Under the pieces are notes generated by a model. It was not told the origin of the DNA, did not search any database, and saw only the letters and a program-made list of their open reading frames with translations. A DNA stretch of 51,324 bases from Escherichia phage WaterSpirit. Shown piece by piece: positions 28,566 to 48,431 of the stretch. The position numbers and the translations under genes are program-made. The stretch's first letter is position 1, and each line of letters opens with the position of its first letter. The stretch lies in the sequence record OR896833.1; one strand, given 5' to 3'.

Positions 28566-28607
28566 TAGCACTTTTTGTTAAAAATAGCTTTTGAACGTGT
28601 GTATTAT
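28566..28607 (+). promoter_or_regulatory. 18-bp element + 18-nt spacer + TATTAT, upstream of helicase operon
   Basis: TAGCACTTTTTGTTAAAAA at 28566-28584; -10-like at 28602-28607. Confidence 0.4.
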
Positions 28608-28639
28608 ACACGCCTAATGGCTTATTAAAAGAGACAGTT

Positions 28640-30679
28640 ATGATTCCTAATATTGAAAAGCAGATAGCCGCTTTAGGTGAAGAAACGATCCGAAAAATAC
28701 AGGAGCGTTTCACGGTTGGCGATATTGTGCCATATCCTTACCAGGTTGTTGCATACACTGAGATCGCAAAGCGTATGCGCAATTATCAGCATCCATTCTT
28801 TATTAAAGCGTCAGTATCAGCAGGCAAAACATTGATGTTTGCAATGGTTGCGGCGCAATGCCGGAAAATGGGCTTGAAAATGATGGTATTGGCGCGACAG
28901 GCTGAAATTGTGGATCAGGATTCAGAGGAGATCACAAATCTCGGCGTGCCAAATTCCATTTATTGTGCCGGACTGAAAACAAAAAGCGCATACTTTCCTA
29001 TTGTGGTTGGTTCTGAGGGTACTGTAGTTAATGGCTTGTTTAAGTCACTTGGCGACTACGTGCCGCACGTTATCGGGATTGACGAGTGTCATCAAGTGGA
29101 TTGGGAAGACCTTGCCGACGCGATAGAGAATGATGAATCACTCATTCAAATGACGACAAAAAAGGGCGAGAAAGTAAAGAATCCAGATTACGACATCACG
29201 AACGCCCATGAGTGTGATGAATTCCTGATTGGGGAAGATGGCTTGCCAATGGAAGGAACAGGCCGGACACAGTACACCGTTATCATCATGGAAATGATGC
29301 GTCGTTGCAGGAAGGAATACGGTCACGAATTGCGTATATTTGGCATGACTGGATCGGAATTTCGCGGCGTGGTTCCAATCCTGGTTGAAGATAAAAAACA
29401 GAAAGGATTTTGGCGAGAACAGGTTACGAACATAGATACCAACTACCTGATCAAATTCGGTTCGGTCGTGCCAACTAATTTTGGCGACGTTGGCGATCTC
29501 GGTTATGACCTGTCAGAGTTCGAGGCATCCAGCGAGGACGGCGTTGCAGATTTTGACGCTAAAACGCTTCGCAAAATGGAACAGAAGATCCATGAAGAAG
29601 CCACCATGACTAAGCGCATCATGGAGAAGGTGCACGAAATATGTAAAAACCGTAACGGCGTATTGGTGACATGTGCAGGTGAAAGACATTGTAAAGAGGC
29701 GGCGGCAGCGTTGCCACCTGGCACGACTTACCGGATCATCACTGGCAAGACTGGCGACAACCAGCGTAAAGAATGGCTGAAAGAAGCATACGAGGGTAAA
29801 GTAAAATACATCTTCCAGGTGCAGGCGCTAACCACTGGCGTTAATGTGCCGTTTTGGGATACGTCGGTTATTCTGCGCAAGATTGGATCTCTTACGTTGC
29901 TGATTCAGCTTTTAGGTCGCGGTATGCGACTTCTTAAAAAGTGGCACAAAGAGCAGGGCTTTCATAAAGACGATCATCTTGTTTTGGATTTTTCCGGCAC
30001 GATGGACGAGTTAGGGGAGCTTTATTTCGATCCGATACTGGAGCAGGCACAGCATCAGAAGAGATTCAAAAACGGAAAAGATCCTAAGCCTTGCCCTGTA
30101 TGCAAGACGTTAAACAGCTATTACGCTCGACGTTGTATGCACGTAGACGAAAACGGAAACAGATGCGAATGGTTTTTCAAATACAAGATATGCGAGGATC
30201 GGATAGACCAGCGCACCAGAAAGGTTATCCATCACGGCTGTGGTACTAAGAATGATATTGCGGCCAGGGTGTGCAGGCATTGCGATGTGTCGCTTATTGA
30301 CCCTAACGAAAAGTTAAGCGGTAAGCACTACACAAAAAACGACTGGTTCCAGGTAAAATCTTTCTCGGTTGACATGACGAAAAATCAGAAAGGGATCATC
30401 TTCAATTATGAGCTTTCCGACGGCATCGACACATTCAGGGCGCGAGAGATATTTTTCCCTGAATCAGAAAGCCAGATTTGCAGGGATAAATGGCGTAGAG
30501 TCGCGTTAAAGCATATACCGGATCGCCGTATTGCTGGCATGGTGGCAAGCTATCGCAATGCAAGAAAAATCATGCAATATGCGAATCACATCATGCAGCC
30601 GTCGATGGTAACTCACCGCAAGACGAGTAAGGGCGAAGATAATCTATACAAGAAGGAGTTTAATTATGGCAATGACTGA
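28640..30679 (+). CDS. ATP-dependent DNA helicase (superfamily 2-like) with C-terminal Cys-rich zinc-finger region
   Basis: 679 aa; Walker A SAGKT, DECH box (GIDECHQ), multiple CxxC pairs in C-terminal third. Confidence 0.7.
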   Translation: MIPNIEKQIAALGEETIRKIQERFTVGDIVPYPYQVVAYTEIAKRMRNYQHPFFIKASVSAGKTLMFAMVAAQCRKMGLKMMVLARQAEIVDQDSEEITNLGVPNSIYCAGLKTKSAYFPIVVGSEGTVVNGLFKSLGDYVPHVIGIDECHQVDWEDLADAIENDESLIQMTTKKGEKVKNPDYDITNAHECDEFLIGEDGLPMEGTGRTQYTVIIMEMMRRCRKEYGHELRIFGMTGSEFRGVVPILVEDKKQKGFWREQVTNIDTNYLIKFGSVVPTNFGDVGDLGYDLSEFEASSEDGVADFDAKTLRKMEQKIHEEATMTKRIMEKVHEICKNRNGVLVTCAGERHCKEAAAALPPGTTYRIITGKTGDNQRKEWLKEAYEGKVKYIFQVQALTTGVNVPFWDTSVILRKIGSLTLLIQLLGRGMRLLKKWHKEQGFHKDDHLVLDFSGTMDELGELYFDPILEQAQHQKRFKNGKDPKPCPVCKTLNSYYARRCMHVDENGNRCEWFFKYKICEDRIDQRTRKVIHHGCGTKNDIAARVCRHCDVSLIDPNEKLSGKHYTKNDWFQVKSFSVDMTKNQKGIIFNYELSDGIDTFRAREIFFPESESQICRDKWRRVALKHIPDRRIAGMVASYRNARKIMQYANHIMQPSMVTHRKTSKGEDNLYKKEFNYGND

Positions 30680-31085
30680 TAAAGGTGACTATCTGGAGTT
30701 TTACGAAAGAGATCCAACAGATACACTAAAAGAAGAATCGCACCAGATAGGTGCGTTTCAATGGGTGACTTATGCTCATCCTGAATTGCTGGCCTGGCAT
30801 ACGAAAAACGAAGGAGACAAGGGAATCGCCACTGCAATGATGGATCAGCAAGCCGGACTCGTTAAGGGTGTGAGTGACTTCATCATCCTGATTGGATTAA
30901 AAGGCCGCTACCCGTTTGCGGCTATTGAAATGAAGCGCGTCAACAAGTCCGGCAAGGGGAAGGCTTCTCCGGTCAGCAAAGAGCAAAAAGCCTTCTTGCG
31001 CCGCGTGCGCGAGCTTGGCGGCTTCGCTGCCGTCACCTACGGTTACAAGCAATTCATGATCGCAGTTGATTACATGCTGAAATAG
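30666..31085 (+). CDS. VRR-NUC domain nuclease
   Basis: 139 aa; GxSDFIIL...E.K...G.G..S..Q pattern consistent with VRR-NUC/PD-(D/E)xK. Confidence 0.5.
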   Translation: MAMTDKGDYLEFYERDPTDTLKEESHQIGAFQWVTYAHPELLAWHTKNEGDKGIATAMMDQQAGLVKGVSDFIILIGLKGRYPFAAIEMKRVNKSGKGKASPVSKEQKAFLRRVRELGGFAAVTYGYKQFMIAVDYMLK

Positions 31086-31125
31086 CACTTTTTGTTAAAA
31101 CAGGCGCGATGGATTGCGCCATAAT
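31083..31125 (+). promoter_or_regulatory. 18-bp element (TAG = stop codon) + 19-nt hairpin spacer + CATAAT
   Basis: TAGCACTTTTTGTTAAAA 31083-31100; spacer hairpin GGCGCG/CGCGCC-like; CATAAT 31120-31125. Confidence 0.45.
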
Positions 31126-31157
31126 CAAATAAACAAGGAAATCGCGAGGATATTAAC

Positions 31158-31859
31158 GTGAAGAAAGAAATTGAAATCAGCTTTGAACAAATCGAACGAG
31201 AAACGTTTGTAGGTAATGCCCTAGCGACCGGAGGCCATTACCAGGCAGTTAAGTCAAATCAATATTTCAAAGTGACGGGCAACCGATATAACGGAAGCAA
31301 TACGCCGGACGTTGTGCGCGATTTATGGTCTACGCCATCAGAGCTTGTCGCATGGATGGAAAGCGAATATGGTGATTATGACATCGACGCGGCAGCAAGC
31401 AAAGATAATGCTGTATGCGAAAAATTCTACAGCAAGGAAACGAATTGCTTAAAGCGTTGGTGGGGTAGTAATAAGCACATCTGGCTTAATCCACCATACA
31501 GCAACATCACGCCATTCGTTAAGAAAGCGATTGAGCAGATGGAGCACAACAACCAGATCGACATGCTTTTACCATGCGACACATCAACAGGATGGTTTTA
31601 TGAAGCGCAACAGCACGCGGCGGAAATAATCTGGATCACTGGAGAAGTTTACAAAGAGGATGGAACAGAATATTCACGCACCGGACGCCTGGCGTTTACT
31701 TCCGCACTTACAGGTAAACCAGTACAGGGCAACAACAAAGGAAGCGTTATTTTCATCATGCGTGAACTGAAAGAAGGCGAGCATCAGAAAACGCGATACG
31801 TTAAAATCAGCGACATTTGCCCTTCCGTGGCAGAGCGTCGGGCAAGAAAGCGGAGTTAA
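31158..31859 (+). CDS. DNA N6-adenine methyltransferase (phage Dam-like)
   Basis: 233 aa, GTG start with RBS GAGGA; NPPY catalytic motif (WLNPPYSN). Confidence 0.65.
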   Translation: MKKEIEISFEQIERETFVGNALATGGHYQAVKSNQYFKVTGNRYNGSNTPDVVRDLWSTPSELVAWMESEYGDYDIDAAASKDNAVCEKFYSKETNCLKRWWGSNKHIWLNPPYSNITPFVKKAIEQMEHNNQIDMLLPCDTSTGWFYEAQQHAAEIIWITGEVYKEDGTEYSRTGRLAFTSALTGKPVQGNNKGSVIFIMRELKEGEHQKTRYVKISDICPSVAERRARKRS

Positions 31860-31863
31860 TATC

Positions 31864-32121
31864 ATGCAAAAAGAAAGAAGCGTTTATTTAAATGAGTGTG
31901 GCGAATGGTTGCTTTATCGCGCTATGGTTTGCGATGCGCTTGATAAAAACCCTAACGTGAAAAAGATGATTGATTGCGATCCGTGGGAATTTTCAAGCGC
32001 ATTGGATATGAGCTTTGAGGAGACAAAAAAACTCCCGCTTGAAAAATGGCATGAACAGATCAGAAATGACATGCAAGAATTTGTCGATTCGTGGAATTTT
32101 CAGCACGGAATGATCCATTAA
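31864..32121 (+). CDS. Hypothetical protein (85 aa)
   Basis: ORF 4 nt after methyltransferase stop. Confidence 0.4.
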   Translation: MQKERSVYLNECGEWLLYRAMVCDALDKNPNVKKMIDCDPWEFSSALDMSFEETKKLPLEKWHEQIRNDMQEFVDSWNFQHGMIH

Positions 32122-32164
32122 CAGCACTTTTTGTTAAAACGCCCGGCATTTTGTCGGGCATAAT
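32122..32164 (+). promoter_or_regulatory. 18-bp element (CAGCAC variant) + 19-nt hairpin spacer + CATAAT
   Basis: Spacer hairpin GCCCGGC-ATTTTGT-CGGGC; CATAAT 32159-32164. Confidence 0.45.
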
Positions 32165-32196
32165 TATTTCATCGAAACGAACATGAGGAAATGAAA

Positions 32197-32376
32197 ATGG
32201 TAGTATATAGCAAGAAAGCATTTGACCAGGCGCAACAAACAGCACGCGAGGCGGTAAAAGGTGGAACGAAAAACAATATGCAGCTTGATTGGGGCGCTGC
32301 AATGATTCTACTTCGCGTTGCATATGGTCACTACCCATTAGAATTTGCGGAGGTATATTATAAGCATGAAAGTTGA
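32197..32376 (+). CDS. Hypothetical protein (59 aa)
   Basis: RBS GAGG 8 nt upstream of ATG 32197. Confidence 0.3.
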   Translation: MVVYSKKAFDQAQQTAREAVKGGTKNNMQLDWGAAMILLRVAYGHYPLEFAEVYYKHES

Positions 32377-32608
32377 ACAAGGGCGTGAAGCAGTCTGGCA
32401 ACATATAAACGAAATGGGGATGGCTGACGACATAAAGAAGATCGCGCAATATTTCGATATTGCAGACATTAGCGTGATCGGAGGCGGCAAAATGACTTTC
32501 CTCAAGGAAAAGCCGCGCAAGATGGTGCGAGTTCCAGCCATACCAACAAAAATTGATTTCAAAGAGGCAATGGCTAAAATTCGAGAGCCTCGCAAATATT
32601 ATAAGTGA
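32366..32608 (+). CDS. Hypothetical protein (80 aa)
   Basis: RBS GGAGGT upstream of ATG 32366. Confidence 0.3.
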   Translation: MKVEQGREAVWQHINEMGMADDIKKIAQYFDIADISVIGGGKMTFLKEKPRKMVRVPAIPTKIDFKEAMAKIREPRKYYK

Positions 32609-32708
32609 GGATGGTTATCATGTGGCGCTTGTTTGTTCTACCGTTACCCGTTATCATTGCGACCGCTATCATATATAGTATCGTAATGCACCAATAGGAG
32701 AAAAAATC

Positions 32709-33827
32709 ATGAGTCAGAGCAAGATAACGGACGAGCAATTCACGCATGAGCGATTAAAGGGTAAGAGCTATCGTCAGATTGCTGAGGAATACGGCCTTAA
32801 CGTTCGTAGCGTCGAGCGCCGAGCGGCACGACTGGCAAAACAGGGTAAAATATCAACCATCGGAACTCCTGGTTTTGGTGTTCACGGTGAATCGGTCATG
32901 ACCGACAAAGAAGGTAACGTGATCGTCAAATGGACAAAGACCAGTAAGGACAAAGAGCAACTGGAAGCGTTGATGCGTGCAGCTATGGACGCTTTTACCG
33001 AAGAATTGCCGCGAGTAGATCCGACACCGGAAGAAGCGAGCGAATACAGCGAAAGCCTTGCCCTTTACCCCGTTTTTGATATGCACCTGGGAGCTATGGC
33101 GCACAAACACGAATGCGGCGAGAATTGGGATACTTCCACGGCTGAGAAAGTAATGAATGACTTTTTCGATTATGCTGTGGCCTGTGCACCGTTCAGCGAG
33201 AAAGCAGTGCTACTGATTGGGGGTGACATGCTTCATAGTGACGGCCTGGAAGCAGTAACGCCTGCAAGCGGTCACGTCCTGGATCAAGATAGCCGATACG
33301 CAAAATTGGTTTACGTGGCAATCCGCGCCGTCCGTCGTGCCATTGAGTTGATGCTCAAAAAACACAAAGAAGTAGAGATCCAGATAATTGAGGGAAACCA
33401 TGACCAAAGCGGCATGATCTGGTTACGTGCAGCTATGGCGGCGGCATATGAAAAAGAGCCGCGCGTTTACGTTGATGTATCGCCGCGAGTGGTTCACCAT
33501 ACGCAGTACGGAAAAACCTTCCTTGCATATCATCACGGTCACACCGTCCGCAAGCCGGAAACATTGCTAATGATGTGCGCGGCAGACTGGCGGGAGGACT
33601 TCGGCAACTCAAAAACGATGTATGCGCACGTAGGGCATTTTCATCATCAGACTGTAACAGAAACATCGCTCGGCATTGTTGAAGTACATAGCACGATGGC
33701 AGCTAAAGACGCATACGCCGCGCGAGGCGGTTGGCGTTCCCGTCGCCGTGCTGCGGTTATCATTTACGACAAAGAACACGGCGAAATCGGAAGATTTATG
33801 TTTTATCCTGAGATGGCAGAGAAATAA
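32709..33827 (+). CDS. HTH domain fused to calcineurin-like metallophosphoesterase
   Basis: 372 aa; N-terminal HTH-like SYRQIAEEYGLNVRSVERR; phosphoesterase motifs DxH (FDMH), GD (GGDMLH), GNHD, and His-rich HHGH/HVGHFHH. Confidence 0.5.
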   Translation: MSQSKITDEQFTHERLKGKSYRQIAEEYGLNVRSVERRAARLAKQGKISTIGTPGFGVHGESVMTDKEGNVIVKWTKTSKDKEQLEALMRAAMDAFTEELPRVDPTPEEASEYSESLALYPVFDMHLGAMAHKHECGENWDTSTAEKVMNDFFDYAVACAPFSEKAVLLIGGDMLHSDGLEAVTPASGHVLDQDSRYAKLVYVAIRAVRRAIELMLKKHKEVEIQIIEGNHDQSGMIWLRAAMAAAYEKEPRVYVDVSPRVVHHTQYGKTFLAYHHGHTVRKPETLLMMCAADWREDFGNSKTMYAHVGHFHHQTVTETSLGIVEVHSTMAAKDAYAARGGWRSRRRAAVIIYDKEHGEIGRFMFYPEMAEK

Positions 33828-33998: not shown

Positions 33999-34020
33999 CC
34001 ATATAAAACATTAACTTATA

Positions 34021-34335: not shown

Positions 34336-34338
34336 ATA

Positions 34339-35446: not shown

Positions 35447-35478
35447 TTTGTTTTCCTCATATTCGTTTCGATGAAACA

Positions 35479-35521
35479 AATATACCCGACTATAAGCCGG
35501 GCGTTTTAACAAAAAGTGCTA
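35479..35521 (-). promoter_or_regulatory. 18-bp element + 19-nt hairpin spacer + TATATT (minus sense)
   Basis: Minus-sense TAGCACTTTTTGTTAAAA at 35521-35504; TAG is stop of upstream gene. Confidence 0.45.
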
Positions 35522-35716
35522 TTCCATCCGCTTCACCGTAACCAGCAAGACACCATCATCATCACATAAATTGTGTTCGGAAGTGTCAAAGGCACGCATA
35601 TCCGATAAAAGCAGCGTAAGTAACGCATGAATGAAATCATCATGTGATATTGAATTTACGGCGCAAAATTTCAATATCTTGTCTATTAGACTTTGCTCCA
35701 AAGAGTTCATCATCAC
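35519..35716 (-). CDS. Hypothetical small protein (start uncertain)
   Basis: ORF overlapping the 3' end of 35640-36035; real start may be an internal ATG. Confidence 0.2.
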   Translation of the reverse strand: MMMNSLEQSLIDKILKFCAVNSISHDDFIHALLTLLLSDMRAFDTSEHNLCDDDGVLLVTVKRME

Positions 35717-36035
35717 TCATTTCTCCTATCCGTGCCATATCCCTTATCCATTCATTTTGCATTCCCTCAAAGGTGTAAAATTCGAATCCGAACGGCCTAC
35801 GGGCAGATCCGTCAATGCACCAAAATCTACCTTCAACGCCATCCAGATAACCAGCGCCCATCATTCTTGCGCAAAACTCTTTCGATAGCATGGAAGCGAA
35901 CATGCGCGGGGTGAATCCGGCCTGCTTCGCCAGGCGTTCACATTCTCTGTGCTGATAGATAAATTTTGCAATGTGCTGACGAGTAAACCAGTCGTAAGAC
36001 TCACACCATCTGTAGAGATCCAGAATGAACATCAT
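35640..36035 (-). CDS. Hypothetical protein (131 aa)
   Basis: ATG overlaps stop of upstream ATPase gene. Confidence 0.35.
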   Translation of the reverse strand: MMFILDLYRWCESYDWFTRQHIAKFIYQHRECERLAKQAGFTPRMFASMLSKEFCARMMGAGYLDGVEGRFWCIDGSARRPFGFEFYTFEGMQNEWIRDMARIGEMSDDELFGAKSNRQDIEILRRKFNIT

Positions 36036-37688: not shown

Positions 37689-37907
37689 TTTGATCCGCTC
37701 GATTGCAACCAGTAGGCGATCCGGCTGGCGGTCGCTGTAGCATTCTCCGGTTACATCATCCTTAAAAGTGAAGTAAAGCGACTTGTGATATGAATACCCA
37801 ATCAGCCAACCTTCCGCAGTTCTCTTTATTGGCCTGACAATATCGCCAGGCTTGAAAGTTGCAGTTGTGGCGTGAGTTACTTTATATCGGTATTCACTGC
37901 GGATCAT
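37686..37907 (-). CDS. Hypothetical protein (73 aa)
   Basis: ORF; stop TAG lies within the conserved element. Confidence 0.35.
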   Translation of the reverse strand: MIRSEYRYKVTHATTATFKPGDIVRPIKRTAEGWLIGYSYHKSLYFTFKDDVTGECYSDRQPDRLLVAIERIK

Positions 37908-38290
37908 GAATATTTGGCCTCAAAAAGATAAGAGTAACCAGCAGAGAATCCGACCTCCTCGCGGTAGAGCGTCCATCGGTCGCCGTCCTCATCGAAGACG
38001 TAACCAGCAACTGATCCAAGAACGCGACCCTGTTCGACCTGGTAACGCTTTCCAGCTTTAAAACTTTTTTTGGTTGCCATCCGGTGATCAACAAACGTAC
38101 ATAGAATCGTCTTTGCCTTGATAGTGCGGTATTCGTCCTGGTTGGCTGATTCCCACTTCGCGCCCTTAGCCAGCGCCTTAACCTGAAATTCCTCCATTTC
38201 GATCACGTCGTCGCTGCCAGCTACTTTTGTGTAAACAGTTTTATAGCGACCGTTCATCAATTTGTTGTCGGAATTGCGGATAACTTTCAT
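37904..38290 (-). CDS. Hypothetical protein (128 aa)
   Basis: ATG 38290 with RBS GGAGAAAA. Confidence 0.35.
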   Translation of the reverse strand: MKVIRNSDNKLMNGRYKTVYTKVAGSDDVIEMEEFQVKALAKGAKWESANQDEYRTIKAKTILCTFVDHRMATKKSFKAGKRYQVEQGRVLGSVAGYVFDEDGDRWTLYREEVGFSAGYSYLFEAKYS

Positions 38291-38322
38291 TTGATTTTCT
38301 CCAGTTGTTTTCGTTGAAACGC

Positions 38323-38365
38323 ATTATTCCCGACTCAAGGTCTGGCGTTTTAACAAAAAGTGCTA
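38323..38365 (-). promoter_or_regulatory. 18-bp element + 19-nt spacer + AATAAT (minus sense)
   Basis: Minus-sense TAGCACTTTTTGTTAAAA at 38365-38348; TAG is the methyltransferase-like gene stop. Confidence 0.4.
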
Positions 38366-40006: not shown

Positions 40007-40203
40007 TAGATGATCTCCATGTATGTTTCAAAGCCATTTAACTTGAACAGGCCGTTTTCACATTTGCGAACGTTCCAAGTTAGCCCTGAGTGGTACGCCT
40101 CCATATCATCAAGGTCAATGGTGATTTCAGCACCTTTCTTAAACAAACCTTTTTCGTGAGACTTGTCGCGCTTGATAACCTTAACGTCAACCTGCGTTTC
40201 CAT
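40006..40203 (-). CDS. Hypothetical protein (65 aa)
   Basis: ATG 40203 with RBS GAGGAATTGAAA; 5' leader paralogous to that at 40701. Confidence 0.35.
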   Translation of the reverse strand: METQVDVKVIKRDKSHEKGLFKKGAEITIDLDDMEAYHSGLTWNVRKCENGLFKLNGFETYMEII

Positions 40204-40234
40204 TTTCAATTCCTCGTTCGTTGTCGATGCGCAT

Positions 40235-40277
40235 ACTATACCAATCAGCCGCGCATCGTTTTTAACAAAAAGTGCTA
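40235..40277 (-). promoter_or_regulatory. 18-bp element + hairpin spacer + TATAGT (minus sense)
   Basis: Minus-sense TAGCACTTTTTGTTAAAA 40277-40260; GATGCGC/GCGCATC stem with TATAGT in loop. Confidence 0.45.
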
Positions 40278-40559
40278 TTCTTCAATGATTCCGGTTAGCG
40301 ACACAATTGTGCCAGTCCGGCGGCGATAGCGGCGCATTACAACCGGAAGGTTTTCACCGCTTTGATGCCCGAAGCAGATCGGCATCATTCCATTTTCTGA
40401 ATACCATGCGTCAAACTCACGATCCCGCACTGGCCTGAATTGCCACGCGCAGATAAAGCCGTTTGCATCGCGCGTGATAAATTTATAAATGTTCGGCAAT
40501 TGTAGTTTGATGCCTTCGAAATCCACCTCGTCGCTATAGCTGCGAAACTTAAAACTCAT
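40275..40559 (-). CDS. Hypothetical protein (94 aa from internal ATG; ORF extends to 40610)
   Basis: RBS TGGAG 9 nt upstream of ATG 40559; stop TAG lies in the conserved element. Confidence 0.3.
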   Translation of the reverse strand: MSFKFRSYSDEVDFEGIKLQLPNIYKFITRDANGFICAWQFRPVRDREFDAWYSENGMMPICFGHQSGENLPVVMRRYRRRTGTIVSLTGIIEE

Positions 40560-40701
40560 AGTCAACAACTCCAAATTCATTGACGATTTGCGCCTTGTAG
40601 AATCCGCCATTTTTCGCCAGGTTGTAACAAGCGGCTACGGTTTCAAATTCGCGTGCTTCCGGCTGGCTGTTTTCGTGTTCCCAGGTAATCAGAGTAACCA
40701 T
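40549..40701 (-). CDS. Small hypothetical protein (50 aa), below ORF-track cutoff
   Basis: ATG 40701 preceded by the same leader/RBS module (GCGAGGATTTGAAA) as gene 40006-40203. Confidence 0.3.
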   Translation of the reverse strand: MVTLITWEHENSQPEAREFETVAACYNLAKNGGFYKAQIVNEFGVVDYEF

Positions 40702-40734
40702 TTTCAAATCCTCGCATTCGTTGTCGATGCGTGT

Positions 40735-40777
40735 AATGTACAGGAATACGAGGATTGAGTTTTAACAAAAAGTGCTA
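40735..40777 (-). promoter_or_regulatory. 18-bp element + 19-nt spacer + TACATT (minus sense)
   Basis: Minus-sense read of 40760-40777. Confidence 0.4.
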
Positions 40778-40778
40778 T

Positions 40779-41783: not shown

Positions 41784-41818
41784 TTGCTATCTCCTGAGCG
41801 GTTTGTTTCGATGTGTGT

Positions 41819-41861
41819 AATGTACCCGATCAGAATGATTCGGTTTTAACAAAAAGTGCTA
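41819..41861 (-). promoter_or_regulatory. 18-bp element + 19-nt spacer + TACATT (minus sense), upstream of early-left operon
   Basis: Minus-sense read of 41844-41861. Confidence 0.4.
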
Positions 41862-42456
41862 TTCCATGCCTGGTGCATTATTCCAGTTATTCCACGCTCA
41901 AAGAATAATCGGAATAAGTTGCTTAACTGTTAAATTGGTTAGTGTGATATGCGTTTACCAGGTTTTTCGATTGATTGCGTGTGTGATTAATCATGTGTGG
42001 CGGGGTGTATAGAAAGTAGTTGCCCTCTCGCCTCGTCCTGGTGGCGTCAGCAAACAGAAGCTGTTTATTTTGTTCGCGCGTGTTCGCGTTTCAGGGAGGC
42101 ATGTTTCCGCGCTGTTTTTCAATGTATTGCGAACGCAAAAAACAAAATAAATCCCTTATAATACATTGAAAATAAAGAATATTTATTTATGTGTATATTT
42201 ATGTGTTATTTCTTGTTAGCGTTGTTAGTGTGATATGTGATGGTTGCGGTGTCGCTTTGTTGGTATATATATGGATAGTTGCGCGCCTGGTGGAATGAGT
42301 ATGTATATATACTTTTATTGCGATATTGCGCTAACAGCGCGAACAGAAAGAAAACAAGCGGTAAAAACTTATTGAAAATCATGTGTTTATGTAGCGATTC
42401 TCTCAAAACGTCGGCAACGCGAACAGGCCGCGAACGTTATACGGACAAAATAAACA

Positions 42457-42484
42457 TTGACACGCATGAAATAGCACTTATAAT
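42457..42484 (+). promoter_or_regulatory. Near-consensus sigma70 early promoter (TTGACA-16-TATAAT)
   Basis: Direct read; spacer contains AAATAGCAC; drives early-right gene block. Confidence 0.65.
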
Positions 42485-42515
42485 GGCCTGCAACTGACCA
42501 ACAGGAGGAATGACA

Positions 42516-42977
42516 ATGAGTCAGAAAACATCGAAAGACTATTGCGACTGGTTGCGAGAGCTTGGGCGACGCCTTGCAAGCGGCGAGATTGTAGAGCATA
42601 AAATGTCAGTTCTCGACCTTGCCGGAATGTTAAACGGCGACGACTACTACAAGGTGACAAAGAATCAGGCATACAGCCGCACAATAATCAACCGTGTGCC
42701 GGAAGTGAAAGCGGTTGGAAAGGTGCGAATCAGAACGGAAGAAACGGAAGACGATAAGTTTTACGTTTTCAGCCTGAATCGCGACGTTAAGCGCAAGGTG
42801 ATCACGAGCGAAGACTTGCCAGCCGTCCAGGCAAAGGCGGTAGAAAAGTTCGCCGCTCGCATTCTTGCATCAATGCCAAACGTTACCGATATGCAAGGCG
42901 ATAAACTGGCTGGAGCTTGTGAAGGAATAAGCCGCTACCAGGAAATGATCCGCAATCTTGTTAACGAGGAGAAATGA
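42516..42977 (+). CDS. Hypothetical early protein (153 aa)
   Basis: RBS AGGAGG 7 nt upstream; first gene after the strong promoter. Confidence 0.4.
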   Translation: MSQKTSKDYCDWLRELGRRLASGEIVEHKMSVLDLAGMLNGDDYYKVTKNQAYSRTIINRVPEVKAVGKVRIRTEETEDDKFYVFSLNRDVKRKVITSEDLPAVQAKAVEKFAARILASMPNVTDMQGDKLAGACEGISRYQEMIRNLVNEEK

Positions 42978-42978
42978 A

Positions 42979-43242
42979 ATGAATAAGGCATTAATGGCGG
43001 TTTTTATGGCAACAGCATTCCTTACCGGATGTAATGGTGATGGTGCTTACGTCGATGCACAAATGGCTAACCCTGCCGATACTTACAACGTCAGAAAACT
43101 ATTTACAGTTGATGGTTGCGATGTGTACAGGTTCAGCGATAGCCGATACGTGTACTTTACCAACTGCCAGGGTAGCGCAAACTGGTCAACTAACGAAGGT
43201 AAGTCGGTTAGTCACTACCAGAACACAACAAACGTTAAATAG
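42979..43242 (+). CDS. Early lipoprotein (87 aa)
   Basis: RBS GAGGAGAAA; signal peptide with lipobox LTGC; two Cys pairs in mature part. Confidence 0.5.
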   Translation: MNKALMAVFMATAFLTGCNGDGAYVDAQMANPADTYNVRKLFTVDGCDVYRFSDSRYVYFTNCQGSANWSTNEGKSVSHYQNTTNVK

Positions 43243-43282
43243 CACTTTTTGTTAAAACTCAAAAACGATAACCAGTCATAAT
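43240..43282 (+). promoter_or_regulatory. 18-bp element (TAG = stop codon) + 19-nt spacer + CATAAT
   Basis: TAGCACTTTTTGTTAAAA 43240-43257; CATAAT 43277-43282. Confidence 0.45.
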
Positions 43283-43288
43283 ACACAC

Positions 43289-43484
43289 ATAGACGGGCGG
43301 CAAGGATTGCTGCGGGAGAGGAGCGACGCAGGGGCTTGATCGAAGTGTCAGGATTCCCAACCGTGAGGCCAGAACTATCACACTCGCCACCAGGCAGAAC
43401 GCTAGATAGGTCACTGAACTGAGGCTACCGACGAAGTGAAGCCCGTCACCAAAGATTAAACGGTTATTTATGTGAAAGGGGTTA
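43289..43484 (+). ncRNA. Candidate structured RNA / long structured 5' leader
   Basis: About 195 nt GC-rich non-coding segment between a promoter and the next RBS; long-range complementarity GACGGG (43292-43297) with CCCGTC (43442-43447) plus several local stems. Not verified by folding or homology. Confidence 0.25.
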
Positions 43485-43667
43485 ATGATGGATAAAATCA
43501 TCAAAATGAGCGAAGTCAAACCGGGAATGATGGTTAAGTTTGCTGGCAAATATCGCCTGGTGCTGGATAACTGCCGCAAAGAGAACATTCTCACCATTCG
43601 CGTTAACGGCAAGGCGCAGCTATTCGCCCCCAACGCAGATATTAATGTTGAGGTAAGAATTAAGTAA
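43485..43667 (+). CDS. Hypothetical protein (60 aa)
   Basis: RBS AAAGGGG upstream. Confidence 0.3.
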   Translation: MMDKIIKMSEVKPGMMVKFAGKYRLVLDNCRKENILTIRVNGKAQLFAPNADINVEVRIK

Positions 43668-43735
43668 TAATCCAGGCCGTAAAATCCGGCCTATAACCAG
43701 AAATAATTTTGTTAAACCAATCAGGAGAAAGCACC

Positions 43736-44626
43736 ATGTTAAAACTTGCTGACATTAAATTCCCGATCACCTTCCAATCAAAGGGAGTCGGACACTTCAT
43801 GTTTACCGATGAAAATACATGCACTAAGTTTAACGAATACGGAAAGCCTGATGTTTCATCAATGGAGATTGATCACTTCATTGATGCGCATAACAAGCAC
43901 TACAACTCGCTTAAAGACTACGGCTACGCAATGCCAGGATATACCAGCCTCCACTACAAGCCATATAAAGGCCAGGTGTTACCAGTGCGCTCGCCGGAAC
44001 GCGCAGAGATTCCGATGGTCGAGATGAAAACATGCGACTATAAAAAGCTGTGGTGCTTAAACGTGGACAATATCAAGTATCCGATCACGTTCCGAGCCAC
44101 TGGTGATAGCACGATAACATATACATCAAGAGATAACGGCGTTTATAGCGATGGTCAGAAATCAGAGCTAAAAGTTGATTTCTTTGTTAATGGTCACAAT
44201 AGATTCAACCCACACAATGAAAAAGATAAGGTGTACTACGTGGAAGACATTACAAAACACTTATTTGGAGAAACACCATTCGGCGGCGGGAAGACGTCAA
44301 TTCAGAAAATAATTGGCGAGGAGATCCACAAAGCGGCTAACGAAATAAAAGCGCCTGGAGGCTGGCGTATTGATAAGAGCGCCTTTGCCAATCAAGAAAT
44401 CTTAACGCAGGGAGCAATTGAAGACATGCCAGTTGCAGCCACTCTAAAAGGAGTCCAGCTTGATGATGGTTCATGGTATGAACTAACTGCGAAACCAAAG
44501 ACGATTGAGATTCATGATGATGTTGTTATCCTTCTGCTTCACTATGGCAGCGCAAAAAACCGGACTGTTGCGGGTGAGATCAGCATCAAGCGCGGAACGA
44601 TGGTTAAGTGGAAGGTGAAGATTTGA
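43736..44626 (+). CDS. Hypothetical protein with internal tandem domain duplication (296 aa)
   Basis: RBS CAGGAG 8 nt upstream of ATG 43736; repeated segment D(I/N)K(F/Y)PITF...F(I/V)(D/N)(A/G)HN at aa ~5-60 and ~120-180. Confidence 0.45.
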   Translation: MLKLADIKFPITFQSKGVGHFMFTDENTCTKFNEYGKPDVSSMEIDHFIDAHNKHYNSLKDYGYAMPGYTSLHYKPYKGQVLPVRSPERAEIPMVEMKTCDYKKLWCLNVDNIKYPITFRATGDSTITYTSRDNGVYSDGQKSELKVDFFVNGHNRFNPHNEKDKVYYVEDITKHLFGETPFGGGKTSIQKIIGEEIHKAANEIKAPGGWRIDKSAFANQEILTQGAIEDMPVAATLKGVQLDDGSWYELTAKPKTIEIHDDVVILLLHYGSAKNRTVAGEISIKRGTMVKWKVKI

Positions 44627-44702
44627 GTTTGCTCACTGCGGCGACGTGCGCCGCATGGATCGGATTGTTTGTCTACCTGTTTAGCTTTTATTGAGGTGAG
44701 AG

Positions 44703-44855
44703 ATGGCTACCTGGATTTTACTGATTCTTATGATTGATGGCGGCGTTGACCATATTGAAATGAATAGCCAGCAATCTTGCATTGAGGCACGAGAGCAGAT
44801 CAAGAACAACAACAGGTTTTATGCTTACACTCACACGCTATGTATTAAGAAATAG
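44703..44855 (+). CDS. Small hydrophobic protein (50 aa), below ORF-track cutoff
   Basis: Strong RBS GAGGTGAGAG; N-terminal TMD (WILLILMIDGG); stop TAG inside the conserved element. Confidence 0.3.
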   Translation: MATWILLILMIDGGVDHIEMNSQQSCIEAREQIKNNNRFYAYTHTLCIKK

Positions 44856-44894
44856 CACGAATTGTTAAAACTCAAATGTGGGGCCAGGTATAAT
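44853..44894 (+). promoter_or_regulatory. 18-bp element, GAATTG variant + 18-nt spacer + TATAAT
   Basis: TAGCACGAATTGTTAAAA 44853-44870; TATAAT 44889-44894 within GGCC/GGCC hairpin loop. Confidence 0.45.
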
Positions 44895-44924
44895 GGCCTC
44901 ACTTTCAACGAAGGAGATAAAACG

Positions 44925-45143
44925 ATGTACATTAACAAGAAGATGAAATGCGTTTCCGTTGGCTATGGTTGCGCTGGCATGTTTAAGCCTGGCGAAATCT
45001 ATACGGCGCAAAAACTGAAATCATCAACCGGATCTTTTTACGTGAGCAATAGCAAGGGGCATCGCATGTTTCTTAACGGTGGTGAAGGAACGAAGGTTAT
45101 GGCGCACGCTATGGTAATTGCTGAATTTGAGGAAGTGAAATAA
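44925..45143 (+). CDS. Hypothetical protein (72 aa)
   Basis: RBS AAGGAGA upstream of ATG 44925. Confidence 0.35.
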   Translation: MYINKKMKCVSVGYGCAGMFKPGEIYTAQKLKSSTGSFYVSNSKGHRMFLNGGEGTKVMAHAMVIAEFEEVK

Positions 45144-45325
45144 TGGATGATTTTACTCGGATTGTTCTCTGTTGGATTTTGTTTCTTTTTGCCTGGCTTA
45201 TCTACTGTGCGAAATATAAATTCAGACTGAGCTATGATAATTCATTTGTTATGGCTTGCTTCAGTGTTCCAGGATGGATCATTTTACTTTTAGCTACTGC
45301 TGAATACATTCATAAAACATTTTAA
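45143..45325 (+). CDS. Small membrane protein (60 aa)
   Basis: Two hydrophobic segments. Confidence 0.3.
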   Translation: MDDFTRIVLCWILFLFAWLIYCAKYKFRLSYDNSFVMACFSVPGWIILLLATAEYIHKTF

Positions 45326-45335
45326 GGATTAATAT

Positions 45336-45878
45336 ATGAAAAAATACACTTTCGAACTATGGGGCAAGAAATACGAATTAATGACCAGCAAGCCGATTGT
45401 TATCGTTGATCTTGATGGCACGCTATCGGACGGATCGCATCGTTTGCACTTGTTGCCAACGGAAAACTTGCACCTTACTGAATCGTGGAGCGAATTTAAC
45501 AGGGCAGCCGCCGGAGATTCACCTATTAAGAGCACGATCGCGGTTATTAACGGTTTATGGGTATCAGGATTCGCCGTCATTATCCTGACCGGACGCAGCG
45601 ACGAAGTTCGCTATGAAACATGCAAATGGTTGAATGAGAACGGAGTGAAGTTTGACGAAATCATCATGCGCCGCCAGGAGGATAACCGAAAGGATACGGT
45701 TATTAAAGAAGAAGCCTTGCGCGCTATTGGCCTGGACAATATCGTTTGCGCCTTTGACGATTCCGCGAACGTGGTGAAGCACTTCCGTAACCTGGGGATC
45801 ACAACCTATCAGGTAACGGAATATGACAAGCCACACGCTCACCTGCAATCTCACGGCGTGGAGGAGTTGCAGAAATGA
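45336..45878 (+). CDS. HAD-superfamily phosphatase (polynucleotide 3'-phosphatase-like)
   Basis: 180 aa; HAD motif I DLDGTLSDG near N-terminus; small size typical of phage Pnk phosphatase domains. Confidence 0.5.
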   Translation: MKKYTFELWGKKYELMTSKPIVIVDLDGTLSDGSHRLHLLPTENLHLTESWSEFNRAAAGDSPIKSTIAVINGLWVSGFAVIILTGRSDEVRYETCKWLNENGVKFDEIIMRRQEDNRKDTVIKEEALRAIGLDNIVCAFDDSANVVKHFRNLGITTYQVTEYDKPHAHLQSHGVEELQK

Positions 45879-46084
45879 TCCTGAATGTAGCATATGCTAA
45901 CCCTCGCGGCTGCAATATATACGGCTTTAAGGTTGGCGCGATGGTCAACGCCAGGATAAACGAAAAAGGCGTATTAGTTGTCAAGTCACCTAAAACTGGC
46001 ATGGATATGCGCATCAAGGAGAACGGCGGAAGATTGTTTATCAGGTCAATGTCTGGTCAAACGCTCGCAACGTTCACCAAATAG
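45875..46084 (+). CDS. Hypothetical protein (69 aa)
   Basis: Start overlaps upstream stop (ATGA). Confidence 0.3.
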   Translation: MILNVAYANPRGCNIYGFKVGAMVNARINEKGVLVVKSPKTGMDMRIKENGGRLFIRSMSGQTLATFTK

Positions 46085-46125
46085 CACGAATTGCAAAAAA
46101 CAGATCATCGGGCTTGCTTTATAGT
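46082..46125 (+). promoter_or_regulatory. 18-bp element, GAATTGC variant + 19-nt spacer + TATAGT
   Basis: TAGCACGAATTGCAAAAAA 46082-46100; TATAGT 46120-46125 in loop of GGGCTT/AAGCCC hairpin. Confidence 0.45.
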
Positions 46126-46187
46126 AAGCCCATCAACAACGAAAGAGGAAAGCATCATGTTGTTACAGCAGACGAGGAGACGAAGAA

Positions 46188-46457
46188 ATGACACGCAAAA
46201 TTGAAATATTCCAGGCCATAGACAGAATCGACATGAGGGATTCACTATTCGCTATTGAGTCCATTGATGGCGAAGACGTCGCCTACAACGTAGAGCTGGA
46301 TGAATACAGCTTCGACTGTGTGCGCAAAAAGTTTGCAGATAAAATTGCTATGCAAGGCCGATGCTTGCATAAAGACTCAAGCATAGAGCCTAGACGAAGC
46401 GACATGATTAATCCAAAACTTGTTGAGACTATTACTTTTGTGGAGAGCAGAAAATGA
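46188..46457 (+). CDS. Hypothetical protein (89 aa)
   Basis: ORF; stop overlaps next start. Confidence 0.3.
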   Translation: MTRKIEIFQAIDRIDMRDSLFAIESIDGEDVAYNVELDEYSFDCVRKKFADKIAMQGRCLHKDSSIEPRRSDMINPKLVETITFVESRK

Positions 46458-47044
46458 AAAGAGACATCATTATCCTGAATGGGCCACCTGGAGTGGGAAA
46501 GGACACCATTGCGGCATACCTTACCGGACACCGATACCCAGCAGTTAAGGCATCATTCAAACAGCCAATGTTCGATATTGCGTTCTCCATGCTTGGCGTG
46601 TGCCGATACGATGAATTTATGGACTTGTACAACGACCGGGAACAGAAAGAGAAGCCTCAAGTTATTTTGGGCGGCAAGTCACCGCGACAGTTCATGATCT
46701 GGATTAGCGAGGAGGTCATGAAGCCAGCATTTGGGGATCAGTATTTCGGCCGTCGCATGGTTGAAGAGATTCACGAGATGTACCGAGATTTGGCAGTTGT
46801 GATCAGCGATGGGGGATTCACCGAAGAAATAAAGCCACTGATTAAAGCAGGTCACAAAGTGCACATTTGCCGACTGCATCGCGAGGGGTACACGTTCGAT
46901 GGCGACTCGCGAAACTATATCGACATGGGCGACTATCATCACCGCCTCAAGCATTACGATTTCACGTTGCACGATGGCGAGCCAGAAAAGACGGTAGAGG
47001 AAATCATCGAAACCGTGCAGTGGTATTTCACAAAAATCAAATAG
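46454..47044 (+). CDS. P-loop kinase (nucleotide or polynucleotide kinase-like)
   Basis: 196 aa; Walker A GPPGVGKDT near N-terminus. Confidence 0.5.
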   Translation: MKRDIIILNGPPGVGKDTIAAYLTGHRYPAVKASFKQPMFDIAFSMLGVCRYDEFMDLYNDREQKEKPQVILGGKSPRQFMIWISEEVMKPAFGDQYFGRRMVEEIHEMYRDLAVVISDGGFTEEIKPLIKAGHKVHICRLHREGYTFDGDSRNYIDMGDYHHRLKHYDFTLHDGEPEKTVEEIIETVQWYFTKIK

Positions 47045-47084
47045 CACGAATTGCTAAACGCGGGGCGCAATGCTCCGCTATAAT
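47042..47084 (+). promoter_or_regulatory. 18-bp element, GAATTGC variant + 19-nt spacer + TATAAT
   Basis: TAGCACGAATTGCTAAAC 47042-47059; TATAAT 47079-47084 inside CGGGG/CCCCG hairpin. Confidence 0.45.
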
Positions 47085-47115
47085 TTACCCCGTTCAGTAA
47101 ACATAGGAATCAACA

Positions 47116-47517
47116 ATGTTAGAGCTTAACAATATCCGCACCGGAACAAAATTTCGCGTAACCTGGGCAGACGAAAAATGCGGCCTTCGTCGTGGTGAGA
47201 TTGTAACCGCCCAATCCCGTTACATCGGCAGACTGGAGAACTACAAGCGCCCACGCATTAAATTCGGCTACATCATCACCGATAGCCTGGGATTTGACAA
47301 TTACGTGATCAAGTCCAGCACCGGAATCATCGCAGACCTTAAGCGAATCCGCAACCATCGCGGCTGCCACGTAAAGACCATGAAAACTCCATTCCAGAAT
47401 GCCAGATACGATGCGCGACGTATGCGCCGACTTGCTCGCAACGCCTGTAAGTTCAAGAAGACTGGCGATGATTTTTACAAAACCTACCAGGGGATCGCGC
47501 GCAATGCTGGCAAATAA
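47116..47517 (+). CDS. Hypothetical basic protein (133 aa)
   Basis: ORF, Arg/Lys-rich. Confidence 0.35.
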   Translation: MLELNNIRTGTKFRVTWADEKCGLRRGEIVTAQSRYIGRLENYKRPRIKFGYIITDSLGFDNYVIKSSTGIIADLKRIRNHRGCHVKTMKTPFQNARYDARRMRRLARNACKFKKTGDDFYKTYQGIARNAGK

Positions 47518-47616
47518 CGTCGATTCGACTAATCCAAAGCCGCCATTTGATTTTCATAAGGCGATGGCTGTGATACTATTCGTTCTGTTAATTTTTCACT
47601 GTTTGAGGTTTGGATT

Positions 47617-47868
47617 ATGGTTATCAATGCACTAAAGCGGCTTATTCGTCCAGAATACAGGATCGTATGTTGCACTGAATGCAAGGTTTACTATCTGCAA
47701 CGTCGTAGCACCTGGCGCGGTCGCTGGGAATATCTGACAGAGGATTCATTCGGCCTGTTAGCTATGGAGTTTGCCCGATACAGTTCGGCGGCAATGTATG
47801 CGAAAACAGCGCACCGATTCCGCAAATCACGCCTTCGTTTGCTTGTTGTTAATAAGTGCGATGTATAG
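47617..47868 (+). CDS. Hypothetical protein (83 aa) with CxxC motif
   Basis: RBS GAGGTT upstream. Confidence 0.3.
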   Translation: MVINALKRLIRPEYRIVCCTECKVYYLQRRSTWRGRWEYLTEDSFGLLAMEFARYSSAAMYAKTAHRFRKSRLRLLVVNKCDV

Positions 47869-47876
47869 GATCACGA

Positions 47877-48056
47877 ATGAAGATAGCAATTATCACTTTT
47901 ATTGCCCTTATCGCTGGTTGCTACCTTGCTTATAATTATAGCGGCATTGTTGAGTCAATCGGCGGGTTGATTATCTTCATGGCTGGCGGTTATGCTGGAT
48001 ATTGTGACGGATTCGAAAACGGAAAGCGTTATGTGCTGACCGGAAAGAAAAAGTAA
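47877..48056 (+). CDS. Small membrane protein (59 aa)
   Basis: Two hydrophobic segments. Confidence 0.3.
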   Translation: MKIAIITFIALIAGCYLAYNYSGIVESIGGLIIFMAGGYAGYCDGFENGKRYVLTGKKK

Positions 48057-48100
48057 AACACGCGCCGCCGCAAGGTGGCGTTTTCTATAGGAGAAAGAAA

Positions 48101-48391
48101 ATGGCAACTATGCGCAAAATGCTTATCAATGGCTTTGAAAGAGAAATTCGCCGTCGAGGCTGGGATGATTCTAAAAATTCACCTTACACTATCAATCGCG
48201 GAGATTATAAATCAGTTCGACATTTTGCACGATGCCTGGCTGGATGCTACGACCTGGAGCATCCTTTCCCGTTCATGAACGAAACTCTAACAGAAATGAT
48301 GGAAGAGGCCGCAACTCAAGATCGCCCACTGACGCAACATGATTTTGATGAGTTTGCGCACTGGGAAATCGAATGTGCGCTATATAAATAG
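48101..48391 (+). CDS. Hypothetical protein (96 aa)
   Basis: RBS GGAGAAAGAAA; stop TAG inside the conserved element. Confidence 0.35.
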   Translation: MATMRKMLINGFEREIRRRGWDDSKNSPYTINRGDYKSVRHFARCLAGCYDLEHPFPFMNETLTEMMEEAATQDRPLTQHDFDEFAHWEIECALYK

Positions 48392-48431
48392 CACTTTTTG
48401 TTAAAACCAGCTTCGGCTGGTTTTGTATTAT
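48389..48431 (+). promoter_or_regulatory. 18-bp element + 19-nt hairpin spacer + TATTAT
   Basis: TAGCACTTTTTGTTAAAA 48389-48406; CCAGC-TTCG-GCTGG hairpin + TTTTG; TATTAT 48426-48431. Confidence 0.45.

Follow-up and report, generated by a model that had tools for sequence, protein, structure and literature searches.

What reads the 18-bp element that recurs, at an almost fixed distance from a -10-like hexamer, through the genome of Escherichia phage WaterSpirit (OR896833.1)? This phage is a T1-like siphovirus of the genus Warwickvirus, and the whole stretch of 51,324 nt that was analysed is called the window here; over a 6-kb segment it is 99.3% identical to Escherichia phage MatMar (Drexlerviridae, Tempevirinae, Warwickvirus). 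An earlier note on this DNA had listed eight plus-strand copies of the element and proposed them as a candidate phage-specific promoter class, of an architecture not known to be described, that would depend on a phage factor or be temporally regulated. In the present study, the sequence and position of the element suggest that it is a marbox, the binding site of the host activators MarA, SoxS and Rob, in the geometry of class II promoters; binding by these proteins is predicted from the sequence.

Element family and spacing

All eight positions (28566, 31083, 32122, 43240, 44853, 46082, 47042 and 48389) were confirmed, and the hexamers were as described (CATAAT three times, TATAAT twice, TATAGT once and TATTAT twice). 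The letters given for the element also held at all eight, with minor corrections at 32122 (CAGCAC), 44853 (GAATTGTTAAAA) and 46082 (GAATTGCAAAA). The listed family is real, but it was only a part: there are 21 copies on both strands with the form ATAGCAC(TTTTT/GAATT)G(T/C)TAAA, the additional 13 being 1567+, 6200-, 9951-, 20978-, 22481+, 26998+, 28093-, 35521-, 37688-, 38365-, 40277-, 40777- and 41861-. The 18-mer is TAGCACTTTTTGTTAAAA, together with the GAATT variant, and becomes ATAGCACTTTTTGTTAAAA with the preceding A. When up to 3 mismatches are allowed it has 16 matches in the window, where 0.14 are expected by chance.

The consensus of the MarA/SoxS/Rob site is 5'-GCAHWWWWTGYYAAA-3' (PMC6900184), and its A and B recognition sites are GCAC and YAAA, 7 nt apart (PMC9638938). 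The commonest phage copy, GCACTTTTTGTTAAA, matches this consensus at 15/15 positions and the GAATT variant at 14/15. Searched as an IUPAC pattern with at most one mismatch, the marbox has 20 matches in the window against 2.26 expected; the match is 15/15 in 11 copies and 14/15 in 9 further copies. The genes marA, soxS and rob are all encoded by E. coli K-12.

A -10-like hexamer, defined by at least 4/6 matches with A2 and T6 required, stands 19-21 nt past the 15-nt core in 17 of these 20 copies (background 0.06 per site), and in 18 of 21 when the copy at 46082 is added. The spacer, claimed before as 18-19 nt, measures 18-20 nt past the 18-mer, which equals 19-21 nt past the core. All 18 copies that have a -10 are in forward orientation as in micF, with GCAC distal and AAA proximal to the -10, and every promoter-like copy faces a gene downstream of it. 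The modal gap between core and -10 is 20 nt, at 13/20 window sites and 15/22 T1 sites. The picture is the same in about 1 Mb of T1-like loci from IMG/VR, where the gap is 20 nt in 460 of 566 distinct contexts and the orientation is forward in 526. The 5' flank, on which no selection was made, is A in 93%, T in 88% and A in 95% of the 566 contexts.

Class II promoters are those in which a forward marbox overlaps the -35, is centred at about -41 (-41.5 in micF, the paradigm of the class) and leaves no recognisable -35; the mean match to TTGACA is 1.9 in the experimentally mapped class II promoters of Salmonella. In the E. coli micF promoter, which we read directly, the core of ACAGCACTGAATGTCAAAAC is separated by 20 nt from the -10 hexamer TAGAAT. 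The phage promoters share with this class the marbox sequence, its forward orientation and the 20-nt distance, and also the place of the marbox over the -35 position near -41 (centre at about -40.5 to -41.5 if transcription starts, as predicted, 7 nt past the hexamer), the absence of a -35 and the ordinary sigma70 -10. They differ from the host promoters in that about 20 near-identical, near-consensus copies are found per 50 kb, whereas host sites are single and degenerate, and in that the marbox belongs to a cassette that also includes a stem-loop and a conserved leader, and often has the upstream stop codon inside it.

Core promoter

The core promoter was examined in 36 promoters pooled from the window and T1 and aligned on the hexamer. 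The six columns hold T31, A36, T28, A23, A23 and T36, of which A2 and T6 were selected for; G is found at -14 in 28 promoters, and in 24 there is a C-A dinucleotide with its A 7 nt past the hexamer, at the expected sigma70 start. The predicted start is followed by a partly conserved leader, AUCGA(A/C)AACGA, and then by a Shine-Dalgarno (SD) sequence and a start codon, which lie within 120 nt past the core in 17/21 copies of the window and at 53-63 nt in 14 of those. Over the phage promoters as a whole, the match to TTGACA at 17-bp spacing averages 1.83/6, so that there is no recognisable -35. Because of the hexamer, the -14 G and the C-A start, it is very probable that the cassettes are sigma70 promoters with an activator site in place of the -35. 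The part of the earlier proposal that saw factor-dependent, non-canonical promoters here is thus very probably right, and the part that made the factor a phage protein gives way to a host protein as the more likely one.

A canonical sigma70 reading of the element itself was rejected, as TTGTTA/TTGCTA lies 22 bp from the -10, a distance that had been given correctly before. Canonical promoter-like matches were also rejected as the main logic of the region from 34 to 51 kb, which holds 27 of them against 32.9 in shuffled sequence.

Stem-loops

The hairpins noticed earlier are real, and their proposed role as terminators or attenuators is plausible. Among the 36 promoters, 28 (78%) have z < -1.5, with a mean z of -2.9, and the mean minimum free energy is -10.6 kcal/mol against -5.6 kcal/mol in random segments (Mann-Whitney P = 5e-9). 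Two types were found, one that encloses the -10 in its loop and one with a stem in the spacer that abuts the -10; three hairpins of the spacer type scored as terminator-like, and at the primase gene the hairpin amounts to a full intrinsic terminator whose loop contains the -10. In orthologous erf promoters wholly different stems still pair (CGCGGCGT/GCGCCGCG, TGAGGTGT/GCACCTCA, TGCGGTGT/TCACCGCA), and these compensating differences indicate that the structure is under selection.

Such hairpins raise the question of whether the unit is a signal in RNA, or in DNA outside any promoter, for example an RNase E or RNase III site with a protective hairpin, or a roadblock, with the hexamer being a loop or U-tract. 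Many cassettes do lie between co-oriented genes, where read-through RNA would hold both element and hairpin; several hairpins are followed by T-rich sequence with terminator-like scores, the -10 is missing at some copies (1567+, 26998+), and some stand directly beside an SD. This explanation is nevertheless very improbable, because the hexamer columns follow the sigma70 -10 and come with the -14 G and a C-A start at the canonical distance, and because the hairpin varies in position, whereas the element keeps a fixed distance to the hexamer. Moreover, cassettes head operons into which no co-directional transcription would be expected to run from upstream (41861-, 28566+), and no Rfam family matches anywhere in the window.

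Relation to known phage cassettes

The architecture had been supposed to be undescribed, but both of its parts are known: a consensus marbox in class II geometry is that of micF, and the composite unit is that of the promoter-early stem-loop (PeSL) cassettes of the T4-like phages phi1 and RB49 (Arbiol et al. 2010, PMC2839356; Comeau et al. 2014, PMC4122927). In PeSLs an upstream stop is followed by an AT-rich region, an upstream box, a stem-loop between the boxes or over the -10, an SD and the ATG, and both promoter and terminator activity have been shown experimentally (PMC2839356). The PeSLs of RB49, read directly, run TAAAAAGTTG-TTGACA-hairpin (17 nt)-TATAAT-ACACACATACCGAAACGAA...GGAG; a search of 30 kb of RB49 found no marbox.

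The cassettes of the window share with PeSLs the stem-loop between the upstream box and the -10 or over the -10, the position beside small genes of unknown function, indels that are bounded by cassettes, and a homologous -10 and leader, ACACACAT(A)CCGAAACGAA ... GGAG; the leader of the phage cassettes, ACACACATCGAAAC..., can be compared with ACACACATACCGAAACGAA of RB49. A segment of 503 bp (40195-40697) that is absent from MatMar corresponds to exactly one cassette-to-cassette unit, and two further indels between the two phages adjoin the cassettes 44853 and 46082. The difference lies upstream, where RB49 has a consensus TTGACA at 17 bp and no marbox, whereas the present cassettes have a marbox at class II distance and no -35. 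As the consensus -35 is not present, we treat them as a PeSL variant and not as typical members; PeSLs were previously reported only from T4-like myoviruses.

The middle promoters of phage T4 offer a second comparison. Their MotA box is of TGCTT type, is centred at -30 and stands about 12 (11-13) bp from the -10, and both MotA and AsiA are encoded by the phage. An activator box in place of the -35, a retained sigma70 -10 and service to prereplicative genes as a class are common to both systems, but the present element differs in sequence, lies at about -41 and is 19-21 nt from the -10, and no counterpart of MotA or AsiA was recognised in the window.

Distribution among phages

The cassette is not confined to T1-like phages and occurs in siphoviruses, podoviruses and myoviruses. 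T1 has 22 sites, 18 of them with a -10, Veterinaerplatzvirus has 16 and the Klebsiella webervirus Sparks 17, and the podovirus Skarpretter has 9, of which 7 have a -10. Some T4-like phages of Klebsiella, Citrobacter and Enterobacter are also carriers. Among these, Matisse has the form with a gap of 20 and the same leader, and its 89-nt module is 75-81% identical to T1-like cassettes over up to 97% of the module length. In KP15 (NC_014036.1 56480-56580), CfP1 and EBPL the gap is 31-32 nt, the centre is at about -52.5 and a terminator hairpin lies between marbox and -10. A forward marbox at -52 is reported to activate in vitro (PMC6900184), and two spacing classes that are one helical turn apart are as predicted for a bound activator.

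In the GenBank record of KP15 the same cassette, with hairpin, -10 and CACACATCGAAACGAAAC leader, is annotated as 'putative middle promoter; discovered using MEME', but the annotated feature begins past the marbox and leaves it outside; KP15 also differs in that its marbox is one helical turn further 5' (gap 32) and a -35-like TTGCAA is present. The T1 GenBank record has only a handful of promoters predicted by PePPER, none labelled as a marbox class. In the full-text literature, subscription papers aside, we found no description of this promoter class, of the motif or of a marbox in a phage, and nothing relevant on promoters or start sites of Drexlerviridae or on Rob, MarA or SoxS in phage infection. 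What would therefore be new is the combination of two known parts, class II marbox promoters that are carried by phages on cassettes of the PeSL type.

About 1000 phage records carry the core, and their host labels are Enterobacterales save for labels that were shown or suspected to be wrong. One of these, 'Pseudomonas phage PsgS01F' (PP134917.1) with 15 marboxes, was considered as a natural experiment in a host without MarA/Rob and had to be given up as void: it is 100% identical to Escherichia phage vB_EcoS_UALMA_PCEc3 over the 12-kb segment compared, and both are 44,679 bp long, so that its host label is unreliable. About 20 records named 'Campylobacter phage' (MG0656xx) are T1-like and 83-84% identical to the window, and their host labels are probably wrong too.

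Throughout this range GCAC-7 nt-YAAA is kept across families whose helicases are 44-65% identical, and the adjacent spacers diverge freely. This bears on whether RNA polymerase could use the cassettes alone, with TTAAAA as a degenerate -35 at 18-19 bp, T5/A4 as UP-like sequence and the -14 G, the ATAGCAC being kept by recombination or by some other use such as the stop codon. The -10 and leader are indeed shared with the PeSLs of RB49 (TTGTTGACA aligning to TTGTTAAAA), which are strong promoters with no added factor; the -10 hexamers are good, the -14 G is frequent, and roughly half of the copies supply the upstream stop with their TAG. The exact figure is 12/21 in the window, and 6 of the 8 copies listed earlier have a plausible stop of this kind, the upstream open reading frame of a seventh (28566) looking spurious. 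In T1, however, the TAG is a stop in only 5/20 copies, and the conservation of GCAC and YAAA across families with diverging spacers does not fit a polymerase acting alone. Selection on a -35 would be expected to give a 17-bp spacer, whereas the 460 of 566 contexts correspond to 19 bp, and a second spacing class one helical turn away suits a bound activator and not a -35. For these reasons we consider this possibility improbable.

Proposed model

The model that we prefer, with somewhat more confidence than doubt, is that the cassettes are class II marbox promoters on PeSL-type promoter-terminator units, with binding of a host activator and dependence on it being predicted. The cassette would have the order upstream stop codon, marbox, GC-rich stem-loop, -10, short conserved leader, SD and ATG. 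A monomeric host activator of the AraC type would bind GCAC...YAAA, replace the contact of sigma70 region 4 with the -35 and bring sigma70 RNA polymerase to the -10, often with its -14 G, and transcription would begin at the C-A about 7 nt past it. Rob is made constitutively and is for this reason the obvious candidate at time zero. It would act before any phage protein, MarA or SoxS would act under stress, and RamA would do so in Klebsiella and Salmonella. The stem-loop may insulate the units by terminating or attenuating read-through, and some stem-loops may act both ways, with the A4 of the marbox on one flank and the T-rich -10 on the other; the repeats of about 80 nt could double as recombination sites that shuffle small early genes.

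Several points weigh against this model. Rob is largely sequestered and inactive in the absence of inducer, and unstressed cells contain little MarA or SoxS, which makes it uncertain that the basal level of these activators is enough for some 20 promoters. Host marboxes are much more varied than the phage copies, and recombination or gene conversion between cassettes could explain the uniformity of the latter with no binding at all. The element contains a near-dyad, TAGCA-N5-TG(C/T)TA, that a dimeric protein could read, and TTAAAA, which has a spacer of 18-19 bp, could be read as a weak -35 and aligns with the TTGACA of the RB49 PeSL. There is no -10 at class II spacing in 3 of the 21 copies (1567+, 6200-, 26998+), and 4 copies, 2 of them among these three, adjoin the SD of opposite-strand genes. 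A single sigma70 promoter in the window matches the consensus at 12/12 positions (42457-42484, plus strand, TTGACA-16-TATAAT); it drives the DUF7174 gene (42510-42977), of unknown function, and could make an immediate-early phage factor. Finally, for hosts without these activators the comparison covers one phage, Vibrio phage K196; it has no marbox enrichment, but as a distant myovirus it lends weak support.

Candidate binding proteins

A homologue of MarA, SoxS or Rob was not found in the six frames of the window (best E values of 0.64 by tblastn and 0.88 by hidden Markov model), and the candidate regulators were also negative in scans with Pfam and PHROGs. One of the proteins examined as possible binders is a Cro/YdaS-like helix-turn-helix (HTH) protein (28078-28554). 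Two other proteins, whose T1 homologues are annotated as HTH-like, were rejected: that of 35640-36035 has a single winged-helix-like fold (AlphaFold, predicted local distance difference test 87) with no significant PDB match, and that of 37904-38290 is an all-beta protein by AlphaFold; PDB sequence searches with the two gave no matches. DUF7174 likewise showed no relation to AraC-type proteins (hhalign probability 0.1%), and hhalign comparisons of DUF7174 and the winged-helix protein with MarA, SoxS and Rob gave probabilities of 0.1-0.4%.

The phage could still supply an activator of unrecognised fold, immediate-early or carried in the virion, that reads TAGCA-N5-TG(C/T)TA in the way of MotA, the likeness to a marbox then being coincidence or mimicry. 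We regard such a protein as unlikely, although a number of observations speak for it. The two halves of the near-dyad are of 5 bp. The Cro/C2-like HTH protein is encoded beside a cassette and is conserved, with 65% identity in a relative whose helicase is 49% identical, and a winged-helix-like protein is encoded too; but in the Cro-like protein the recognition helix diverges (SQQTVNMWRK vs TPQAVEEWFK), although the element is invariant. The consensus promoter of the DUF7174 gene has the half-element ATAGCAC (42471-42477) in its spacer, directly 5' of the -10. Neither T1 nor any other relative examined has conserved this promoter, and the early regions of T1, Veterinaerplatzvirus and PsgS01F have no near-consensus sigma70 promoter from which a phage activator could be made first. 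The flanks of the element are asymmetric (AAA-TAGCAC ... TAAAA), the commonest copy has TGTTA, which breaks the dyad and keeps the marbox, and the strict orientation to the -10 is that of a monomeric, asymmetric binder.

The comparison with Skarpretter points the same way. The proteins that it has in common with the window are only RecE, Erf, primase, helicase, VRR-NUC, two methyltransferases and one protein of 80 amino acids, and the Cro-like, winged-helix and DUF7174 proteins are unmatched in it. The 80-aa protein (32366-32608, plus strand; phrog_2817, of unknown function) is the sole non-enzymatic one among them and counts in favour of a phage activator; it is found in about 850 phage records, those listed being 44-62 kb, but it is absent among the T4-like records listed, which include carriers of the cassette. 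With no phage candidate, a spread that is accompanied by no common detectable regulator, enterobacterial host labels and the two spacing classes, a conserved host factor is favoured.

Implications

A wider reading, which we offer tentatively and would not yet call probable, is that mobile marbox cassettes tie the early and middle transcription of about 1000 sequenced enterobacterial phages (Drexlerviridae, including the Klebsiella weberviruses, Skarprettervirus and some T4-like phages) to MarA, SoxS, Rob or RamA of the host. If this is true, how strongly and when phage genes are expressed would be governed by bile salts, salicylate, oxidants or clinical mutations with raised MarA or RamA, and the infection programme in a major group of phages of E. 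coli and Klebsiella would be linked to the regulon of efflux, porins and multidrug resistance. Weberviruses are candidates for phage therapy. The cassettes would also carry host wiring between unrelated phage families, the catalogue given below would be a first promoter map for T1-like phages, and the PeSL concept would extend from T4-like myoviruses to siphoviruses and podoviruses, with a route by which constitutive (TTGACA) and activator-dependent (marbox) cassettes interconvert. By extension, a phage product could block recognition of the sigma70 -35 and so shut the host off while sparing promoters that have no -35.

Catalogue of the copies

The 21 copies of the window are collected in Table 1.

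Table 1. Copies of the element in the window, with the -10 hexamers, hairpins and predicted starts assigned to them; descending ranges and arrows to the left denote the minus strand.
Extent	Strand	Element	-10 hexamer	Hairpin	Predicted start, leader	Genes and setting
1567..1584	+	copy without class II geometry	TATAAT only 6 nt past marbox	strong terminator GGCTGGA-ttttt-CCAGCC-TTTTTT after the TATAAT (whole 1567-1640)		TAG = stop of large terminase gene
6183..6200	-	degenerate reverse copy (TTTTGG)	none qualifying			adjoins SD of major head gene
9902..9951	-	TAGCAT... 9951-9934	extended, TGaTAGATT 9914-9909			antisense-oriented, late region; reads into terminator after major tail gene; adjoins SD of plus-strand gene 9969
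20930..20978	-	20978-20961	TATAGT 20942-20937			5' of leftward membrane/cor-like genes (20905<-19741)
22481..22530	+	variant GCACAAATAGCTAAA	TATAAT 22517-22522	22509-22530, -10 in loop		erf recombinase gene
26998..27015	+	..GCTAATG	none at class II spacing			adjoins SD of minus-strand tail protein gene 27003<-25015
28044..28093	-	variant GCACAAATAGCTAAA	TATCAT 28056-28051	intrinsic terminator 28069-28043, then TTTTT; -10 in loop		primase gene; the terminator ends the regulator gene
28566..28614	+	28566-28583	TATTAT 28602-28607	28597-28613, -10 in loop	~28614	helicase gene (28640-30679); faces Cro-like regulator gene (28554<-28078) on other strand
31083..31132	+	31083-31100	CATAAT 31120-31125	31103-31120, in spacer	A31132	Dam methyltransferase gene (31158-31859); TAG = stop of 30666-31085
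32122..32171	+	CAGCAC... 32122-32139	CATAAT 32159-32164	32141-32159, adjoins -10	A32171, AUCGAAACGAA	small genes (32191-32376, 32366-32608)
35472..35521	-	35521-35504	TATATT 35484-35479	terminator-like, 35502-35484, adjoins -10	A35472, AUCGAAACGAA	
37639..37688	-	variant TTGACAAAT, 37688-37671	TAACAT 37651-37646	37658-37636, -10 in loop		5' of helicase/ATPase gene 37618<-36035
38316..38365	-	38365-38348	AATAAT 38328-38323			5' of 38290<-37904; TAG = stop of methyltransferase gene 39136<-38363
40228..40277	-	40277-40260	TATAGT 40240-40235	40258-40225, -10 within		left boundary repeat of 503-bp unit absent from MatMar
40728..40777	-	40777-40760	TACATT 40740-40735			right boundary repeat of the 503-bp unit
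41812..41861	-	41861-41844	TACATT 41824-41819		A41812	first cassette of leftward early operon; gene 41783<-41511
43240..43289	+	43240-43257	CATAAT 43277-43282	none significant	A43289	TAG = stop of 42979-43242
44853..44901	+	GAATT variant, 44853-44870	TATAAT 44889-44894	44878-44902, -10 in loop		indel vs MatMar ends at 44850
46082..46132	+	variant GAATTGCAAAA, 46082-46099, gap 21	TATAGT 46120-46125	46110-46131, -10 in loop		5' of 46188-46457; indel vs MatMar begins at 46155
47042..47091	+	47042-47059	TATAAT 47079-47084	terminator-like, 47060-47078, adjoins -10		5' of 47116-47517; TAG = stop of dNMP kinase gene 46454-47044
48389..48438	+	48389-48406	TATTAT 48426-48431	CCAGC-ttcg-GCTGG 48407-48420, A4/T4 on flanks; looks like bidirectional terminator	A48438	

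The copies that adjoin an SD are in reverse orientation to the gene concerned and lie 0-3 nt from the SD on the opposite strand. They are 6183-6200(-), 9934-9951(-), 26998-27015(+) and 28566-28583(+), and the genes next to them are, in this order, those of the major head protein, the tape-measure chaperone, a tail protein and the Cro-like regulator. The same arrangement recurs in T1 at the head, chaperone and regulator genes (15083-, 18847- and 36447+). An antisense promoter, a roadblock and an mRNA leader element are all possible roles for such copies.

At the divergent helicase and regulator genes, a palindromic TATTATA within 28597-28613 holds both the helicase -10 (TATTAT, plus strand) and a TATAAT of the regulator on the minus strand, and the same is seen in T1 at about 36480. 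As the two -10 hexamers occupy one palindrome, the two divergent promoters should exclude each other.

Many cassettes are GC-rich between the -10 and the predicted start, because the 3' arm of the hairpin lies there. One such stretch, TATAATGCGCCGCG (22517-22530), resembles the discriminator of rrnB P1, and a sensitivity of such cassettes to ppGpp/DksA or to supercoiling is a possibility.

Between the divergent early operons lies a region of about 600 bp (41862-42456) that is AT-rich, has no convincing genes and contains repeated GCGAAC/GTTCGC words. Being positioned like the genome ends of T1, it may hold a pac site or a terminal region.

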